From a virus (taxonomy: Duplodnaviria; Caudoviricetes): a DNA stretch of 64,000 nt. The stretch covers positions 96,001-160,000 of the IMG/VR virus record IMGVR_UViG_3300038443_002533. One strand, 5' to 3'. This document shows, in pieces, positions 41,313 through 63,485 of the stretch (position 1 is its first letter; each line of letters begins with the position of its first letter). The notes under the pieces were generated by a model, which worked only from the letters and a program-made list of their open reading frames with translations, did no database searches and was not told the DNA's origin. The position numbers and the translations under genes were made by a program.

Positions 41313-41418
41313 AGGTTGCAGTTGAGTAATTTTTAACGAGACTGTGTCATGGTTTGAAGGGAATTGCGCCGCCCTCTAGGAGTTAGGAAAGATGCGCTTA
41401 TTTTTCGGGAGTCGAAAA

Positions 41419-42513
41419 ATGCAACAAAACTTTACAGCGTTTGCCAAACCCAAGCTGGGTGTGATGATCGGCCGTTTCTCGTTCATCCACCGTCAGCACG
41501 AACGTACCCTGCAAATCATGGCGGCCGAGAACGACTATATCCTGGTCATGATCGGTTCGGCGAATCGCTGCGTGTCCAAGAAGAACCCGCATGAATTCGC
41601 TGTGCGTGCCGAGATCATGAGCAAGCTGCTGCGCCGGCTCAAACCGGACGGGCAGTTTCGCATCGTGTCGCTCAACGATACCCTCTACAACGAGGAACGG
41701 TGGAAGATGCGGGTGTACGGGGCTGGCGAGCAGTACGCGCAGCGGTGTGGCATCCATCCGGAACGCATCACGCTGTATGGGACCGACAAGGATGAATCGA
41801 CCTACTACCTGAACTCCTTCCCGCAATGGAAGACCAAGGACGTGGGGCGGGTCGAAGACATCGACGCTACGCGGCTGCGTGAGCTGTGGTTCCGTCATTC
41901 GCAGACGGTACCCGGTGGTTTGCGTCTCCAGGACCATCTGGTCCCCGAGATGTTCGACTACCTGAAAGACGGCCACAAGTTCAACGAGGCGTTGCAGAAG
42001 GACTGGTATTACCTCACGGTGACCGAGCCGGATAAGTTCAAGGACTATCCGTATCCTGAAGCCTTGAACGTCATGTGCGGCGATGCAATCGTGGAATGCG
42101 CTGGCCATATCCTGACCGTGACCCGGTCCGGTGATCTCGGCTATGGGCAAGTCGCACTGCCAGGTGGCCACAAGAACAAGAACGAAACCGCGTTCAATGC
42201 GGCGCTTCGGGAACTGTTCGAGGAAACCAACTTGCGTGTGCCGGAGCAGACCATCCGTAACTGCGTGCAACAAACGTACCTGTTCGACCACCCGGGCCGG
42301 ACGCTGTCGTCGGTGCCAAAATCGACGCTCGGCGTTTACGTCAAGATCGAGCCGCGTGACGGCAAGTTTCCCCGTGCCAACGGCGGGGATGATGCCGCGC
42401 ATCCGACGTTACCGAATGGTGGGATCCGCTGGATTCCCAAGTTCGACATCATCAGCGGTAAAGTCAAGATGTGGGACGACCACAATGACATCGTGGATTA
42501 TTTCACGGCGTAA
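41419..42513 (+). CDS. nadM: Bifunctional NMN adenylyltransferase / Nudix ADP-ribose pyrophosphatase (NadM-Nudix, NatV-like)
   Basis: GRF...HRQH, IGSAN, NP, Nudix box GGHKNKNETAFNAALRELFEET, DH..I; start probably ATG 41419 (GGAG RBS). Confidence 0.9.
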   Translation: MQQNFTAFAKPKLGVMIGRFSFIHRQHERTLQIMAAENDYILVMIGSANRCVSKKNPHEFAVRAEIMSKLLRRLKPDGQFRIVSLNDTLYNEERWKMRVYGAGEQYAQRCGIHPERITLYGTDKDESTYYLNSFPQWKTKDVGRVEDIDATRLRELWFRHSQTVPGGLRLQDHLVPEMFDYLKDGHKFNEALQKDWYYLTVTEPDKFKDYPYPEALNVMCGDAIVECAGHILTVTRSGDLGYGQVALPGGHKNKNETAFNAALRELFEETNLRVPEQTIRNCVQQTYLFDHPGRTLSSVPKSTLGVYVKIEPRDGKFPRANGGDDAAHPTLPNGGIRWIPKFDIISGKVKMWDDHNDIVDYFTA

Positions 42514-42584
42514 CGATTAGTGGCAGAAGCCATGAGGGTTGCCGGTCCCTTACCGGTGAAGTAAATAATTGGGAGTCAATTATC

Positions 42585-44138
42585 ATGCTGGAAATCGTAA
42601 AACCCTTCAACATCATCCTCTGGTGCGACACGTACAAGTTTGCTCACTGGGAAGAAATTCCGTTCGGTGTCAAGCAGATGGTGTCGGCGGTCGTGCCGCG
42701 CAAAGCCCTCTACGGCGATGACGGTGAATTCATCACCGACGAAATCGTGACGGCTGGACAAACGTTCATCGCGCACGTTTTCGCGACGGCCCGCCTCGAA
42801 CAGTGGATGATCGACGAAGCAGAAGTCGAAATTACCGAGCAGGGCTACAACTTCAACCGCGAAGGTTGGGAGTACATCCTCCGTACTTACGGCGGCCGTA
42901 TCCCCCTGACCATGTTCGGGGTCGAAGAAGGCCGTGTGGTTAAACCGCAAACGCCGATCCTGATGATCACCAATGAAGACGACGACCGGACCGCGTGGCT
43001 GGTGCCGTACTTCGAGCCGGTGATCCAGTCGGTCTCGTGGTCGATGACCTACACCGCCACCATCTGCCGTTACATGTTCACCGTGATGGCGTACTACGTA
43101 CTGCTGTCCGGCGGCAACATGAAAATGCTGGAATATCTGATCCACAACTTCGGTGATCGTGGAGCAGATGGCCCGGATGAAACCCCCGTGCTCAAAGGCA
43201 TTGCTCACGCGATGCTGTTCCTGGGCAGTGATTGCGGGCGCGCCAATCGCTACATCAAGGTGCTCTACAACACGTCCAAGCCGTACACCAGCTCGGTGGA
43301 AGCTACGGAACACACGACGGTCTGCCTGAATTCGGACGCGGAAACGCGTGACGACTTCGGCGGCATGCAGATGGTCATGCGCCGCCTCAAAGCTGTGGTC
43401 GAACGCAGCAAGCGCGGCATCGGTATCCCTGTGATCTCGACGGTGCCTGATACCTACGACGATGAACGTTTCGTCACGGTGTACGTGGCCGGCTTCAAGG
43501 TGGAAATCGAAAATTCGGGCGGACGTCTCGTCATTCGTCCGGACTCCGGTATCCCCAAGAAGAAACTGCCGCAAGTACTCGGCTGGCTGAAAGATATCTT
43601 CGGCACGACCTTGAACGAAGCTGGCTACCAAGACCTGCCATGGTGCATCGGGGCACTCTACGGTGACGGCATGAACGTTAACACGTTCGAACCTGTCGTG
43701 CGGGCAGCGGTGGTGGACCACAAGTACACCACCAACAACTTCCTGCTCGGCATGGGTGCCGGCATCACCAACGAAGGCTCCCGCGACAAACTGAGCTTCA
43801 GCATGAAAACGATCGCAGAACGCCGCGAATCGTGGAAGCGCGTGCTCAAGGAGCCGAAGTCCGACATGGGTAAGAAGTCGCTGTCGGGTCTGATCCGCAA
43901 TCGTGAAAACGAATACGGCGAACTCGAAACCTTCGACGCCTTGGCTTCGAACAGCTTGTACGAGATGTTCGTGCCGGGCCCGGGACACCGTCGCTGGCTC
44001 GACAAGGGCTATCGCGACTGGCGTCAATCGTTCGATGACACCCGCGCAAATGCGCAGAAAGGCGCCATCGACAAAGCGGCGAATCGTCTGGCCGCTGAAA
44101 AAGCAGTCAATGACGAAGCCGTCGCTGAAGTAGCGTAA
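42585..44138 (+). CDS. nadV: Nicotinamide phosphoribosyltransferase (NAMPT)
   Basis: DTYKFAH, HNFGDRG, ATEH, DTYD, LVIRPDSG, YGDG, RD..SFSMK, PK.D.GKKS. Confidence 0.93.
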   Translation: MLEIVKPFNIILWCDTYKFAHWEEIPFGVKQMVSAVVPRKALYGDDGEFITDEIVTAGQTFIAHVFATARLEQWMIDEAEVEITEQGYNFNREGWEYILRTYGGRIPLTMFGVEEGRVVKPQTPILMITNEDDDRTAWLVPYFEPVIQSVSWSMTYTATICRYMFTVMAYYVLLSGGNMKMLEYLIHNFGDRGADGPDETPVLKGIAHAMLFLGSDCGRANRYIKVLYNTSKPYTSSVEATEHTTVCLNSDAETRDDFGGMQMVMRRLKAVVERSKRGIGIPVISTVPDTYDDERFVTVYVAGFKVEIENSGGRLVIRPDSGIPKKKLPQVLGWLKDIFGTTLNEAGYQDLPWCIGALYGDGMNVNTFEPVVRAAVVDHKYTTNNFLLGMGAGITNEGSRDKLSFSMKTIAERRESWKRVLKEPKSDMGKKSLSGLIRNRENEYGELETFDALASNSLYEMFVPGPGHRRWLDKGYRDWRQSFDDTRANAQKGAIDKAANRLAAEKAVNDEAVAEVA

Positions 44139-49872: not shown

Positions 49873-50120
49873 CTGCCGATATCCGCATCATCGATGGCTT
49901 GACCATCAAACTCATCCCCAAGGACATGTTCAAAGATCGGGATGAGCAAGTCCGTAGTGTGACCTTGACGGCACTCGCCCACATTCAAGACCGCGGTTTG
50001 CGTGTTGAAGAAGTCGTGCGGATCTTCCGCGGTAATGCGTTCGTGGGTGTATCCCGTAAGAACCTCGACGGGTTGGTAGCGTCGTGGGTCGATGTGTGGA
50101 AACGCCATGGCCGCTTCTGA
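49869..50120 (+). CDS. Hypothetical protein, paralog of 50107
   Basis: GTGA overlap; IRI..G...IP...RG..V.E....FRG...W...W...G.F. Confidence 0.6.
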   Translation: MTADIRIIDGLTIKLIPKDMFKDRDEQVRSVTLTALAHIQDRGLRVEEVVRIFRGNAFVGVSRKNLDGLVASWVDVWKRHGRF

Positions 50121-53729: not shown

Positions 53730-53769
53730 CATAAGTGGCCCTAGGGAATTCCCTAGGGCCGTTTTTATG
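53730..53769 (+). terminator. CATA-hairpin-TTTTTATG element
   Basis: GGCCCTAGGG-AATT-CCCTAGGGCC is a perfect 24 bp palindrome; TATG at 53766-53769. Confidence 0.75.
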
Positions 53770-54825: not shown

Positions 54826-55800
54826 ATGTCCAAAAGAGAACACCCCGTTTCGACCCCGCACGATGTGGTTTGCTGTTATCATGCAAATTGCATGGACGGA
54901 CTCATCTCTGCGGCACTCATGCATCATCACTTCAAGGGTCAAGTCGAGTGCTTGCCGGTGCGTTACAACGAAGATCCGCCCCTGGAACTCATGAAGGGCA
55001 AACACGTCTATCTGGTGGACTTCACGTACCCAGTCGAAGCGTTGCAGGATCACATCGAATCGATGGCGTCGCTGACCGTGATCGACCATCACCAAGACGC
55101 CATGACGCCATGGGTCGGCGCAGCCGCACTGGGTGAATTCAAAGACACGACCGTGTTCTTCGACAATAACCGGTCGGGCGCTGCCCTGGTGTGGTTCTAT
55201 CTGCAACACCAGCTCGGTCAGACCTTGGGTGAAGGTACGCCACCGCTGCTGGTCCAGTATGCGCAAGAATACGATCTCTGGACCAAAGGTCTGCCGATGA
55301 CGGATGAAGTGCAAAGCGCGCTGCGTTTTAACTTCCCGCCGCATCAGGCCAATCTCGAAGAACTGGCCGACTACTTGATCAACGCTGGTCCTGCCGAGAT
55401 CGAGAAGCTCAAGTTCACGGGCGCGATCATCCAGCAGCAAGAAAAGACGATGGCCGAGTCCTTGATCCGCCGTGGCTTGCACTTCACCAAGTTCCTCGAC
55501 TACGAGAACATCCCGGTCTGTGCGATGCCGGCTGAACTCGCGAACCAGGCAGGCGAGATCATCTACAACCGTTATCCCGATGCGCCGTTCGTGGTGCTGT
55601 TCGAGGATAACTACAAACACAAGAGCCGCAAGTACTCGTTCCGCAGCCGCCGTGACGGCGGGGCCAATGTGTCGCAAATCGCGGCCCGTATTGGCGGCAA
55701 AGGGCATTACAATTCTTCCGGGGCAGTAGTTGACCTCGAACTCATTTTCGAGCAAGAAGTTCTGGTGTTCAAAGATGAAATCCCGGGTTGCATCGTCTAA
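54826..55800 (+). CDS. DHH/DHHA1 family phosphoesterase
   Basis: YH..CMDG, YLVDF, IDHH, FDN.RSGA, D.W, YSFRS, GG.GH...G. Confidence 0.88.
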   Translation: MSKREHPVSTPHDVVCCYHANCMDGLISAALMHHHFKGQVECLPVRYNEDPPLELMKGKHVYLVDFTYPVEALQDHIESMASLTVIDHHQDAMTPWVGAAALGEFKDTTVFFDNNRSGAALVWFYLQHQLGQTLGEGTPPLLVQYAQEYDLWTKGLPMTDEVQSALRFNFPPHQANLEELADYLINAGPAEIEKLKFTGAIIQQQEKTMAESLIRRGLHFTKFLDYENIPVCAMPAELANQAGEIIYNRYPDAPFVVLFEDNYKHKSRKYSFRSRRDGGANVSQIAARIGGKGHYNSSGAVVDLELIFEQEVLVFKDEIPGCIV

Positions 55801-56974: not shown

Positions 56975-57014
56975 CCCTGCCTCCTCACGGGGGCAGGGCT
57001 TTGGAGCTTTTATG
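56975..57014 (+). terminator. Hairpin plus TTTTATG (the ATG is the next start codon)
   Basis: CCCTGCCTCC-TCAC-GGGGGCAGGG. Confidence 0.6.
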
Positions 57015-57527
57015 CAAACCATTAATCGCGCAGCATTTATCGAGAAAGCTGCGGAAGTTTCGGCGCAGTGCCTGTATGACGTCCATGAGGGGCGGGGCGA
57101 TACTTCCATGGTCGAAGTCGACGGTAAGATGAAAATGAAACCGTTCTTGCCCTTGATCGCGCAAATCGTCGGCAAACCGGAAGGCCGCATCACCAGCATC
57201 TCCGACGGGGTCGGTGGCGTCATCGAGTTGTCGGTAACGGAAGAAGAAGACCTGGAAAATCGGACTAACTTCCATCTGGTGCAACTCGTGCGGAAAACCA
57301 TCCAGGATGCCGGCCGAGATTCCCCAGAAGCCGTTTTCGAAGCCGGCAAGCGTCTCGTCGAGCGTGCCACACGGGCGGGTTCGGTGCTGCTGATCGGCAT
57401 GAACACCGCCAAACAAAAGAAAGTCAGCCAGTCGAAAGACTTCGTGATCGTTGCCCCCTACAATGGCAAAGGTCAAACGCTGATGACCCCTGAACCCTCT
57501 ACCACCGGACAACGCTATGTCGGCTAA
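57012..57527 (+). CDS. Hypothetical protein with a degenerate domain A in its C-half
   Basis: FEAGKRLVERATRAGSVLLI. Confidence 0.6.
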   Translation: MQTINRAAFIEKAAEVSAQCLYDVHEGRGDTSMVEVDGKMKMKPFLPLIAQIVGKPEGRITSISDGVGGVIELSVTEEEDLENRTNFHLVQLVRKTIQDAGRDSPEAVFEAGKRLVERATRAGSVLLIGMNTAKQKKVSQSKDFVIVAPYNGKGQTLMTPEPSTTGQRYVG

Positions 57528-58299
57528 CTACATCTCCCCCATCGACGAAAAAATGATGGCGTATTCCCATCGCCTGCGAGACTTGATTCTCGAAGCGCAT
57601 GCGGAAGGCATCGTGTTCAGCATCGGGGCGGAAGATAATGGGGCGCTCGCACCATTGGAAAAGAATCAACGCCATCACCGTGTCGTGGTCGCAGTGCCGA
57701 AGCTGGAACATGAACACCCGCAGTTGTACACGCCGTACTCGATCACGGCCGAAGCCGTTGTCGAAACCACCCAAGCCATCGTGCCGGCGAAGAAGATCGA
57801 AGCGTATAAACCCCGACCTTTGGTGCCGCTTTACACCGAACTCAGTTCAGGTCTTTTCGTCAACAGGACGTTAATCTGTCCATGGCGCGTGGGTGATGAC
57901 CACGTCGAGACCTCGGCGCTGAAGTTTGATCGGGCCATGGATTTGCTCGCCTTGTCTAACAGCGATGCATGGTTTAAGTCCGGCAAGGTTCGCCAGAATG
58001 ACATGATCGGCGAAACGGTGACTCTGGCAGAAATTTTCTACATTAAGCCCAACAGTCAGGTGGATTCATTCAAAGTGTGGGAAATGCCAGGCGCATTGTT
58101 TCCCCCGGCAACTTCGGGCGATTACAAAGATCTGACGGTCGATTTCACATTTTCGTTGCCATTGGACTTGGGCACGATACGCGTGGCCGGCCGACTCAAT
58201 CGTTTGCACGGCCGGCTCCATCTGACCGCCAAAGCATCGCGGCCTGATGTCACCCCGTTAGGCTTTACGCTCAAAGCGGATCGTATTCAACCGAAATAA
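57517..58299 (+). CDS. Fusion of domain A and a domain resembling part of the phiKZ-family major capsid protein
   Basis: YSHRLRDLILEAHAEGIVF, then PWRVGD..TSALKF..MDLLALS...LGFTLKADR. Confidence 0.55.
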   Translation: MSANYISPIDEKMMAYSHRLRDLILEAHAEGIVFSIGAEDNGALAPLEKNQRHHRVVVAVPKLEHEHPQLYTPYSITAEAVVETTQAIVPAKKIEAYKPRPLVPLYTELSSGLFVNRTLICPWRVGDDHVETSALKFDRAMDLLALSNSDAWFKSGKVRQNDMIGETVTLAEIFYIKPNSQVDSFKVWEMPGALFPPATSGDYKDLTVDFTFSLPLDLGTIRVAGRLNRLHGRLHLTAKASRPDVTPLGFTLKADRIQPK

Positions 58300-58303
58300 A
58301 GCC

Positions 58304-58606
58304 ATGAGCGTGATCCGAAAGAAGATGGAGGCGTACGGTGACCGCTTGATGCAACTCGTCACCGAAGCATTTGCAGAAGGGATCGTATTGACACTGCCCG
58401 AACCGGAAGGTGGTGGGGTGTTGATCGATCCGCCGGAAGGACAACATGTCTATTCGATCTCGGCACCGATTCCATATATGGGGCTGACCCATTTGAGTTT
58501 GAAGCGCACGGAGCGACTGGTCGTGAAAGCTGTCGTGAAAGGCGAGTTGTCTGCGCCTGAAGAAATCGTTTTACCTGTTCGCATGCCGTTACCAAAAAAT
58601 ACCTAA
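58304..58606 (+). CDS. Domain-A protein
   Basis: YGDRLMQLVTEAFAEGIVL. Confidence 0.6.
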   Translation: MSVIRKKMEAYGDRLMQLVTEAFAEGIVLTLPEPEGGGVLIDPPEGQHVYSISAPIPYMGLTHLSLKRTERLVVKAVVKGELSAPEEIVLPVRMPLPKNT

Positions 58607-58621
58607 TAAGGAAGCACTAAC

Positions 58622-58963
58622 GTGAAAACTATTGAAGTCAAGAATAACGAAGCCACGAAACGTATCAACGTTTATGCTGAGCGTCTGCGTGAACTGGTGA
58701 TCGATGCTCTGTCCGAAGGCATTCAGCTGGAAATTCCTGTTATCGAGCGTGGTGGCGCGCTCAACAAGAAATCGCATGGTGTCGAACAATATGTCGTGAC
58801 CGCGGCCATCCCAAATCGCTGGCAACATCCGTATTACAACCAACCGCTGTGGGTGCGCGCCCGTGGCGTGATTGTGAACTGCCAACCTGATTACGAAGAG
58901 AACCGCGTCCTCCCGCCAAACGACGAACTGCTCGCCGCCAACGGTTCTGGTGGTGGTGAATAA
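58622..58963 (+). CDS. Domain-A protein (GTG start)
   Basis: YAERLRELVIDALSEGIQL; AAGGAA RBS. Confidence 0.6.
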   Translation: MKTIEVKNNEATKRINVYAERLRELVIDALSEGIQLEIPVIERGGALNKKSHGVEQYVVTAAIPNRWQHPYYNQPLWVRARGVIVNCQPDYEENRVLPPNDELLAANGSGGGE

Positions 58964-58989
58964 TAATAATCGCGAAAAGGAAGAACAAC

Positions 58990-59616
58990 ATGAAATTCGG
59001 TCCATTCCCGGGCGCTGTCCCAGCCCACCCGATCTTGCGGCAAAACACCGCCCAATACTTCGTCCACCCCAACACGATCGACCCGTGGATGGTCGGCGAT
59101 ACCGAGAACGCCACCTCGGCGCTGAAGTTCGGTGCACGCTTCAGCCTGCTCGATGTCTCGCAAGACGACGACATGCTGGTGACGGGAAAGATGACGGTGT
59201 GCGATGAAATCGATTCGCTGCTCAGTCTGGCGCGGGTGTACTACCGCACCAAGTTCGGCGACGTGAGCTACCTGGACGTGCCGCCGCATTCTGGCGCCTT
59301 GTTTGAACATACCGGCAACTCCCTCAGCGGGCTCACGCTGGATGCGACGGTCAAGGTCAACAAGTTCGGCGAACCGCGTTCCTGGTTCAGCCGGGCAGTG
59401 GACGGGCTCTACAAGTTGTTCAAGAAAGACCTGACGGCAGTGATGCACATCACGGGTGAAGCGAATACCCAGACCGGCATCATGCAGATCGATGTCACCA
59501 CCACCGATATGGATATTCGTCCGATCGGTTACACGCTGCGTGCGTATCGTCGCGACGCCAACCGCCAGTACCATGGCGCCGGCGGCGACCTCTCGCGTTG
59601 CCCGTACATGAACTAA
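58990..59616 (+). CDS. Stand-alone protein resembling a central segment of the phiKZ-family major capsid protein
   Basis: TSALKFG..FSLL.VSQ.D.ML..G.M...D.ID..L.L..VY and IGYTLRAYRRDANR match my recollection of gp120-family MCP. Confidence 0.6.
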   Translation: MKFGPFPGAVPAHPILRQNTAQYFVHPNTIDPWMVGDTENATSALKFGARFSLLDVSQDDDMLVTGKMTVCDEIDSLLSLARVYYRTKFGDVSYLDVPPHSGALFEHTGNSLSGLTLDATVKVNKFGEPRSWFSRAVDGLYKLFKKDLTAVMHITGEANTQTGIMQIDVTTTDMDIRPIGYTLRAYRRDANRQYHGAGGDLSRCPYMN

Positions 59617-59625
59617 GGAGCCACG

Positions 59626-60030
59626 ATGTCTGTTGAAGTAACGCTGCATAAACTGCCTGGCCTGCCGGAAACCCCGATCGAGATCCACGCTCTGGGTTGG
59701 CGTGGTGTTGGTTCCGACCATTCCCATTACGTCATCGGCGGCATGAACATGCTGGACAATCCGCAAGTCTCCGACGCGCGGATCGGTGATCATGAACGTC
59801 TCGACATCCTGTTCCAAAATGGACCGATCCCGCAAGTCGGCCACAATGGCGTGACAATCGAGCATCTGCTCGCGGTGTGCGGCCATCGTCTGGAAGAACT
59901 CCAAAGCGGCAAGTTCGCCAGCGAGTACAACCAAAAGGCGCTGGAACACATCCAAGGCGCGATCGCCTCGCTGAGCCAGCGTACGCTCGACCGTATCGCC
60001 CGTCAAGTCGAAGGCACGTACCAAACGTAA
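59626..60030 (+). CDS. tad1: Tad1-like nucleotide-signal sponge (anti-Thoeris / anti-CBASS family)
   Basis: H.HY.I...I.FQNGP....HNGV..E.LL....HRL..LQ.G.F.S.YN..AL.HI..A...L..R..DR..R.V.GT matches the Tad1 pattern over the whole length. Confidence 0.8.
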   Translation: MSVEVTLHKLPGLPETPIEIHALGWRGVGSDHSHYVIGGMNMLDNPQVSDARIGDHERLDILFQNGPIPQVGHNGVTIEHLLAVCGHRLEELQSGKFASEYNQKALEHIQGAIASLSQRTLDRIARQVEGTYQT

Positions 60031-63212: not shown

Positions 63213-63485
63213 ATGTCTCACGAACAACACAACGCAGAAACCAGCGACGCTTATCTGAAACGGGTGTGTGACTATGACCCGGCAACCGATAAGCTCATGA
63301 AGACGAGCGATATCTTGGAGATGCTGGCTAACGCCAATGCCGAGGTTTCGCGCAACACCTTCGATCGCTGGGTCAAAAATGGTTCCTTCCCGAAACCGAA
63401 TATCCGCATCGGCCAGAGCTGGCGTTGGACTGAACGTCGGGTCAAGGAATGGCTCCGAAGCTGCGTAGAGAAAGCTCAACAATGA
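63213..63485 (+). CDS. AlpA/excisionase-like HTH DNA-binding protein
   Basis: LMK..DI...L...VSRNTF.RWVK.G.FPKP.IRIG...RW....V.EW. Confidence 0.8.
   Translation: MSHEQHNAETSDAYLKRVCDYDPATDKLMKTSDILEMLANANAEVSRNTFDRWVKNGSFPKPNIRIGQSWRWTERRVKEWLRSCVEKAQQ

Follow-up and report, generated by a model that had tools for sequence, protein, structure and literature searches.

Analysis of the window, a stretch of 64,000 nucleotides (nt) comprising bases 96001–160000 of a phage genome that is 272,470 bp long and bounded by direct terminal repeats (IMG/VR record IMGVR_UViG_3300038443_002533), showed the presence of an array of genes encoding two domain types, namely a short N domain and the I (insertion) domain of phiKZ-type major capsid proteins. 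The genes are arranged in the order [N+I][N][N][I] and are followed by the gene of a Tad1-like protein (Table 1); each gene of the array is preceded by its own ribosome-binding site. The phage has a phiKZ-type capsid protein of its own (P0005, 734 amino acids (aa), genome positions 216464–218347), encoded 61 kb from the I-domain locus, as well as a chimallin gene, and is therefore a nucleus-forming jumbo phage. P0005 is most similar to the capsid protein of Burkholderia phage FLC9 (41.5%), followed by that of Ralstonia phage FLC4-3B (35%).

Table 1. Genes, domains and repeated sequence of the I-domain locus (positions in the window).
Feature	Position	Strand	Basis or remark
First gene of the unit, 171 aa, function unassigned	57012..57527	+	Open reading frame (ORF) list; 3' end overlaps the start of P0001 by 11 nt
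P0001, 260 aa, N domain fused to I-domain copy 1	57517..58299	+	ORF list
N domain of P0001, residues 1–95	57517..57801	+	Paralogous to P0003 and P0004
I-domain copy 1, residues 97–260 of P0001	57805..58299	+	PF25620, E 1.5e-13; model on gp120 248–466
Shared 17-mer, copy 1, codons for TSALKF	57910..57926	+	Exact match
P0003, 100 aa, N domain alone	58304..58606	+	E 1e-8 to N-half of P0001; 3e-11 to P0004
P0004, 113 aa, N domain alone, GTG start, strain-variable cassette	58622..58963	+	E 2e-8 to N-half of P0001
I-domain copy 2, P0002, 208 aa, stand-alone	58990..59616	+	PF25620, E 1.8e-14; AlphaFold2 model; Foldseek
Shared 17-mer, copy 2, codons for TSALKF	59113..59129	+	Exact match
P0156, 134 aa, Tad1-like, 9 nt 3' of the P0002 gene	59626..60030	+	phmmer against PDB

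Residues 101–256 of P0001 and residues 11–187 of P0002 are 29% identical (E-value 2e-16). Both proteins are matched by the Pfam family PF25620 (PhiKZ_MCP) above its curated cut-off of 27 bits, P0001 with 50.2 bits over profile positions 147–280 of 635 and P0002 with 53.3 bits over positions 149–320, and both match PHROG 3231, annotated as ‘major head protein’. The phage's own capsid protein P0005 also matches the two proteins, the best alignment being that of the P0001 I domain with capsid residues 237–374 (35% identity, E 3e-13). A small family profile recovers the solved capsid proteins of phiKZ, phiKp24 and one further jumbo phage, and the match of the family hidden Markov model (HMM) on the phiKZ capsid protein gp120 covers residues 247–472. 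The motifs T-S-x-L-K-F-G and G-Y-x-L-x-A-x-R-x-N-x-N-R are common to the I-domain proteins and gp120.

The I domain of phiKZ gp120 comprises residues 248–472; in the virion it extends from the E-loop and lies on the outer face of the neighbouring subunit, at its A/P junction, and I domains form dimers at the quasi-two-fold axes between capsomers (PMC11297242). AlphaFold2 models were obtained for P0002 with a predicted local distance difference test score (pLDDT) of 91.3 and a predicted template modelling score of 0.85, and for P0001 with a pLDDT of 90.8. Foldseek placed the capsid proteins of phiKp24 (8bfl_A) and phiKZ (8y6v_a) on top (E 1e-10, probability 1.00), with nothing else significant. 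In structural alignments made with VIA-align, residues 4–192 of P0002 were superimposed on gp120 residues 248–467 of 8y6v_a with Z 18.0 and a root-mean-square deviation (rmsd) of 3.1 Å over 179 residues, and residues 97–260 of P0001 on gp120 residues 248–466 with Z 18.9 and an rmsd of 2.5 Å over 161 residues. The fold is thus the same throughout as that of the phiKZ-type capsid I domain (gp120 residues 248–472, PDB 8Y6V; phiKp24, PDB 8BFL; PF25620), with Z 18–19, rmsd 2.5–3.1 Å and 161–182 aligned residues.

According to these models, the C-terminal half of P0001 and the whole of P0002 are complete free-standing I domains, to which no further part of the capsid protein is attached. An entire HK97 core (N-arm, P domain and A domain, ~700–760 residues) was not found in these proteins of 260 and 208 aa, and since the A and P domains are absent, they are not capsid proteins. 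Unlike phiKZ-type capsid proteins, they stand alone or are fused to other segments, evolve faster and are encoded away from the structural genes.

The first-pass annotation of the window, made from the letters alone, had described the C-terminal half of the product starting at 57517 and the product starting at 58990 as paralogs sharing an identical 17-mer at 57910 and 59113, and as resembling an excised segment of a gp120-family capsid protein. Both I-domain paralogs are real, and the 17-mer is exact in both places; the noted resemblance is borne out by Pfam, PHROG and the alignment with the phage's own capsid protein, and the excised segment can now be specified as the whole I domain, end to end. 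A lack of profile or structural matches to the gp120 family, which had been named as the outcome that would speak against this assignment, was looked for, and both kinds of match were found. What had been overlooked in the two-paralog description is that the N-half of P0001 has two further paralogs, encoded at 58304–58606 and 58622–58963, so that the locus comprises four genes built from two types of domain.

The 17-mer, ACCTCGGCGCTGAAGTT, has exactly two occurrences, both on the + strand; none were expected, and none were found in 100 shuffles. It encodes T-S-A-L-K-F, with two nucleotides of the last codon, which is the most conserved motif of the I-domain family. DNA identity between the P0001 and P0002 genes is only 45% over 164 aligned codons, with the same codon used for 31 of the 52 identical residues. 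Because the surrounding DNA is so divergent, gene conversion was rejected as the source of the 17-mer, which instead reflects the use of preferred codons for a conserved motif.

When 1.84 billion representatives were searched exhaustively with a profile, 373 matches were obtained at E ≤ 1e-3, and the best 150 of these, together with proteins of named phages, were used for typing and tree construction. They comprise 66 capsid proteins (~700–760 aa, with the I-domain match at about residues 220–410), 54 stand-alone I-domain forms of 165–235 aa, 20 N-extended and 13 C-extended forms; the free I-domain family, including short, N-extended and C-extended proteins, accordingly numbers at least 87 protein clusters. 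All but two of the 66 capsid proteins group together in the maximum-likelihood tree of 160 I domains; this clade of 64 is supported by a value of 100 in the Shimodaira–Hasegawa-like approximate likelihood ratio test, and one of the two ‘capsid’ outliers, P0140, is actually a fusion of a Tad1-like domain and an I domain. All short and extended forms are located outside this clade, on longer branches, with the exception of three short rows, which are probably fragments of capsid genes. P0001 and P0002 belong to different subclades among the short forms, both outside the capsid clade. This position of the non-capsid forms shows that free I domains are an old separate family and not recent copies of each phage's capsid gene; the family is accessory, evolves fast and is carried by nucleus-forming jumbo phages.

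Distribution of the family among known phages is patchy. Among ten cultured phages, clear free copies were found by the profile search only in 201phi2-1 (gp106) and FLC9 (gp132 and one more), and no short form was found by it in phiKZ, RSL2 or FLC4-3B. A fold search of viral models added uncharacterised proteins of Phabio, RP12, pEt-SU, PhiPA3, Psa21, PhiEaH1 and others. Comparison of the locus by megablast and of P0002 by tblastn with the phage collection gave no match, the relatives being too divergent, or absent, at that sensitivity; profile and fold searches were therefore needed. In a search for related loci, a four-row alignment led to a single locus, and a 50-row alignment offered no stretch of sufficient conservation. 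phiKZ gp185 and 201phi2-1 gp281 did not resemble the I domain in profile comparisons. In 201phi2-1 gp282 (L049 5491–6711, 406 aa), encoded two genes past gp280, a marginal I-domain-like stretch was noted (hhalign probability 55%, E 1e-4).

The Tad1-like protein P0156 matches phiKZ gp184 at 4e-12 and Thoeris anti-defense 1 proteins (8kbb, 7uav and related entries) at 7e-8 in a phmmer search against PDB, being nearer to gp184 than to the solved Tad1 proteins. A search with P0156 itself showed that its gene is the sole Tad1-like gene of the genome; the Pfam family PF24729 gave no match in the genome, and the control of the same search was also without a match. Tad1 blocks Thoeris and the cyclic-oligonucleotide-based antiphage signalling system (CBASS) by sequestering their signals, and phiKZ gp184, which is Tad1, is a non-essential minor capsid protein reported to be injected (PMC13282480). 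The N-terminus of gp184 is reported to be wedged in the capsid, and its C-terminus to be released by the head protease (PMC11297242; bioRxiv 10.1101/2025.11.23.690004).

Coupling of I domains to Tad1-like domains was found repeatedly. An I domain followed by a Tad1-like domain is present in seven cluster representatives (P0028, P0032, P0037, P0038, P0045, P0047 and P0049), and the reverse order in P0140, giving eight fusion clusters altogether, with the I–Tad1 fusions scattered over several places in the I-domain tree. In P0028, the C-terminal Tad1-like domain shares 43% identity with P0156 (E 4e-29); its match to solved Tad1 proteins has an E-value of 5e-11. Inspection of 12 gene neighbourhoods revealed separate I-domain and Tad1-like genes one or two genes apart in four other loci: in L020 and L041 the order is N, I, Tad1-like, with a 4-nt overlap; in L044 a gene of a 264-aa protein lies between the I-domain and Tad1-like genes; and in FLC9 the I-domain gene gp132 is followed by gp131, encoding a cyclophilin-like domain fused to a Tad1-like domain (L019 4654–5670). 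Genes for prolyl isomerases, cyclophilin and FKBP, were also observed near I-domain genes in two metagenomic phages (L045 3018–3572; L044 3721–5481).

One of the closest known arrangements is that of gp184, likewise a C-terminal Tad1-type sponge placed after a different N-terminal module. This module is a short low-complexity region of ~110 residues with no I domain, whereas the window encodes the sponge on its own, as P0156, with the I domain in the gene next to it. The likeness of the fusions to gp184 in order, with the I domain N-terminal and Tad1 C-terminal, suggests that the I domain may have retained its capsid contacts and serve as an adaptor, docking on capsids or procapsids and taking Tad1-like cargo, and perhaps further partners, into the virion for co-injection, a part played in gp184 by the N-terminal capsid anchor (PMC13282480; PMC11297242; bioRxiv 10.1101/2025.11.23.690004). 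P0156 carries no N-terminal anchor of any kind, and I domains have several unrelated fusion partners at their N- and C-termini, which would suit a targeting module. Three fusions share F-S-G-x-E-Y about 10 residues before the Tad1 domain, which resembles the S/A/G-x-E motif of head proteases. The I domain and its contacts are, however, on the outer surface of the capsid (PMC11297242), and cargo docked there would not be injected. A protein that partners the capsid protein, which evolves slowly, would also hardly be expected to evolve fast and be patchily distributed. In the GenBank records of 201phi2-1, the capsid protein is flagged as found by mass spectrometry, as are gp200, gp276, gp277 and gp280, the homolog of gp184, but gp106 is without a virion flag. 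Packaging by docking is regarded as rather doubtful.

The known contacts of the capsid I domain, namely dimers between capsomers and the A/P junction (PMC11297242), would offer obvious binding sites to a free copy, which could pair with capsid I domains or fill their docking site. Such a protein may chaperone or time assembly, cement the shell as a decoration protein, or poison capsids of co-infecting related phages. I-domain genes were found within a few genes of chimallin in five phages, namely 201phi2-1 (gp105–gp106–gp107), L020, L036, L037 and L038, a proximity that could link them to the handling of capsids at the phage nucleus. The study of nuclear-shell interactions makes no mention of PhiPA3 gp326. 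In the present genome, however, chimallin is 93 kb away from the locus, the family is not part of the core genes, as its absence from the profile matches of phiKZ, RSL2 and FLC4-3B shows, and the repeated fusion and adjacency to Tad1 are left unexplained. Taken jointly, these roles in assembly, decoration or inhibition of competitors are quite unlikely. Complex prediction with residues 150–734 of the phage's own capsid protein (44-row alignment) and P0002 (50-row alignment) gave 0.00 in both runs and carries no weight either way.

Identity of free I domains to capsid I domains is low (~15–35%), and P0002 ends in a conserved C-terminal tail, C-P-Y-M-N (window 59590–59613), without a counterpart in the capsid protein. 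A tail of the form C-P-[YFAV]-M, usually with one further residue, follows the I domain in the P0002 subclade only (homologs P0006–P0014) and may be a docking peptide. Together with the long branches and the diversity of fusion partners (the N domain, a P-loop-like segment and Tad1), the low identity and this tail (C-P-[YF]-M) are consistent with an exapted fold whose function no longer concerns capsids: it may, for example, tune the Tad1-like sponge as a partner in oligomerisation or ligand binding, or bind another target in the host. Against this stands the retention of the whole domain, with its terminal strands directed toward the capsid linkers, and of its most conserved motifs, which suggests that the original interaction surface is maintained at least in part; an exapted role is considered unlikely.

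Gene content around the array is metabolic and anti-defence rather than structural. Upstream, at 41392–44138, adjacent genes encode a cytidyltransferase/NUDIX protein (Nmnat-like, PHROG 395 and 1198) and a nicotinamide phosphoribosyltransferase (Nampt, PHROG 448), a pair which we take to resemble the phage pathway of nicotinamide adenine dinucleotide (NAD+) reconstitution that counters NAD+-depleting defences such as Thoeris. A DHH/DHHA1 phosphoesterase, which is a possible degrader of nucleotide signals, is encoded three genes 5' of the unit (54826–55800, PHROG 4771, E 1e-61), and its ortholog holds the same position in L020. Genes for DHFR and an ATPase are also found in the neighbourhood. 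The proposal in the first-pass annotation that the proteins belong to a non-structural operon next to Tad1 agrees with this context: P0156 adjoins the array, the DHH phosphoesterase and NAD+ salvage genes are upstream, the capsid gene is remote, and gp106 is unflagged.

In staphylococci and streptococci, major capsid proteins activate the TIR proteins (ThsB) of Thoeris (PMC12578639). By analogy, and in line with the decoy role suggested in the first-pass annotation, the reading tentatively preferred here is that a free I domain may imitate, in soluble form, the most exposed part of the capsid protein and, together with Tad1, counter capsid-sensing immunity of the Thoeris type. The free I domain would engage host sensors of capsid protein, for which Thoeris TIR cyclases are the model case, and would either blunt activation of the sensor or hold the Tad1 sponge where the signal arises (‘bait and sponge’), with the N-domain proteins possibly serving as accessory partners. 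Repeated fusion and adjacency of I-domain and Tad1-like genes lend indirect support to this. An accessory, arms-race character can be inferred from the patchy distribution, several copies per genome, the strain-variable cassette and fast evolution; the anti-Thoeris neighbourhood (Nampt, Nmnat/NUDIX, DHH and Tad1-like genes) and the lack of a virion flag on gp106 are likewise supporting. The bolder form of the idea, that a dedicated family of soluble capsid-surface mimics in nucleus-forming jumbo phages baits capsid-sensing receptors and is physically coupled to Tad1, through fusion or a shared operon, so that the signal is caught at its source in a two-layer counter-defence, is doubtful; if true, it would be the first case of a phage countering immunity with a protein that mimics its own capsid.

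Several points weigh against capsid mimicry. Capsid sensing by Thoeris was shown for staphylococcal and streptococcal systems and siphovirus capsids only (PMC12578639), whereas this phage has a phiKZ-type capsid and probably proteobacterial hosts. Rather than blocking an activating sensor, a bound mimic could set it off. Tad1 is not adjacent to many members of the family, among them 201phi2-1 gp106 and those of L036, L037 and L038, where chimallin is the conserved neighbour. In addition, the Tad1 of phiKZ is packaged via an N-terminal capsid anchor, and since the I domain occupies the same position in the fusions, packaging would fit this arrangement equally well.

CapRel and Lit are defence systems triggered by capsid proteins. 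To our knowledge, no phage-encoded capsid mimic has been described for Thoeris, CapRel or Lit, and we know of no capsid sensor shown to recognise phiKZ-type capsid proteins. The T4 vertex protein gp24 is a full HK97-fold capsid paralog in a lattice position, while T4 Soc and Hoc and lambda gpD are decoration proteins on the capsid lattice that are not capsid-derived. Like these, the window proteins are derived from, or would bind, the capsid lattice; here, however, only a single surface domain has been copied out. Thoeris ThsB1/ThsB2 (PMC12578639), CapRel and Lit represent the type of sensor that a soluble copy of a capsid domain could engage, and Thoeris is itself counteracted by Tad1 and by the NAD+ salvage genes encoded in the window.

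No description of stand-alone I-domain paralogs or of I–Tad1 fusions was found in literature searches, and in the protein databases searched, members are annotated as hypothetical or uncharacterised proteins or carry no label but that of the capsid Pfam family. The fold is known; new, as far as can be told, are its occurrence as a family of stand-alone proteins, the domain architectures of this family and the link with Tad1. The question addressed is how phages cope with immunity that recognises unavoidable structural proteins, the triggering of Thoeris by capsids having been shown only recently. An exposed capsid domain, copied out and repeatedly joined to Tad1, is a testable candidate for interference at the level of the sensor, or else for a novel way of packaging anti-defence cargo. 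The family assignment also gives a first functional handle on the at least 87 clusters of unannotated jumbo-phage proteins, with cultured carriers including 201phi2-1 (gp106), FLC9 (gp132), Phabio, RP12 and pEt-SU; the label with the capsid Pfam family alone, carried by some members, invites their mis-annotation as capsid genes.

The N domain is a paralogous domain of ~90 aa, modelled as one long helix and three strands (pLDDT ~80–87). I domains are often accompanied by such a small N domain: its HMM also matches the N-termini of six other N+I proteins, and an ortholog of P0003 is encoded directly 5' of the I-domain gene in the related 269-kb phage L020. No Pfam or PHROG family, no usable match in the ESM Atlas and no similarity to the capsid protein were found for this domain, and structure comparisons gave nothing above Z ~3. 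Elsewhere in the I-domain family the N-terminal segments are unrelated, and one is P-loop-like: in P0043, P0053, P0089 and P0126, a segment of ~60 aa with the Walker-A-like motif G-x-x-x-S-G-K-T was noted instead of the N domain. The product of the first gene of the unit was without matches in Pfam and PHROG searches.

A strain with 90–97% identity covers window positions 50000–60700 in contigs of two root-metatranscriptome libraries, which show the presence of such a phage and are no proof of transcription or its timing. One contig of a ~95%-identical strain skips positions 58607–58977 (369 nt), so that the whole P0004 gene is absent and the number of N-gene copies differs between strains; the joint at 58607/58977 shares seven letters, corresponding to the repeated ribosome-binding site AAGGAAG.

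Two hairpins, one of them at 56975–56998 just 5' of the unit, flank positions 57012–60030, as judged by eye only. A terminator-bounded operon is not established, since the terminator scan omitted both hairpins and a contig from an RNA library crosses the upstream one. Further downstream, at 63213–63485, a gene encodes a small DNA-binding protein of the HTH_17/excisionase-like type (Pfam E 4e-6), and a similar gene follows chimallin in L036. The only convincing terminator-like structure within 53.5–61.5 kb is a strong hairpin at 53733–53764, with 14 pairs (8 G–C) and a T run, typical of intrinsic terminators.

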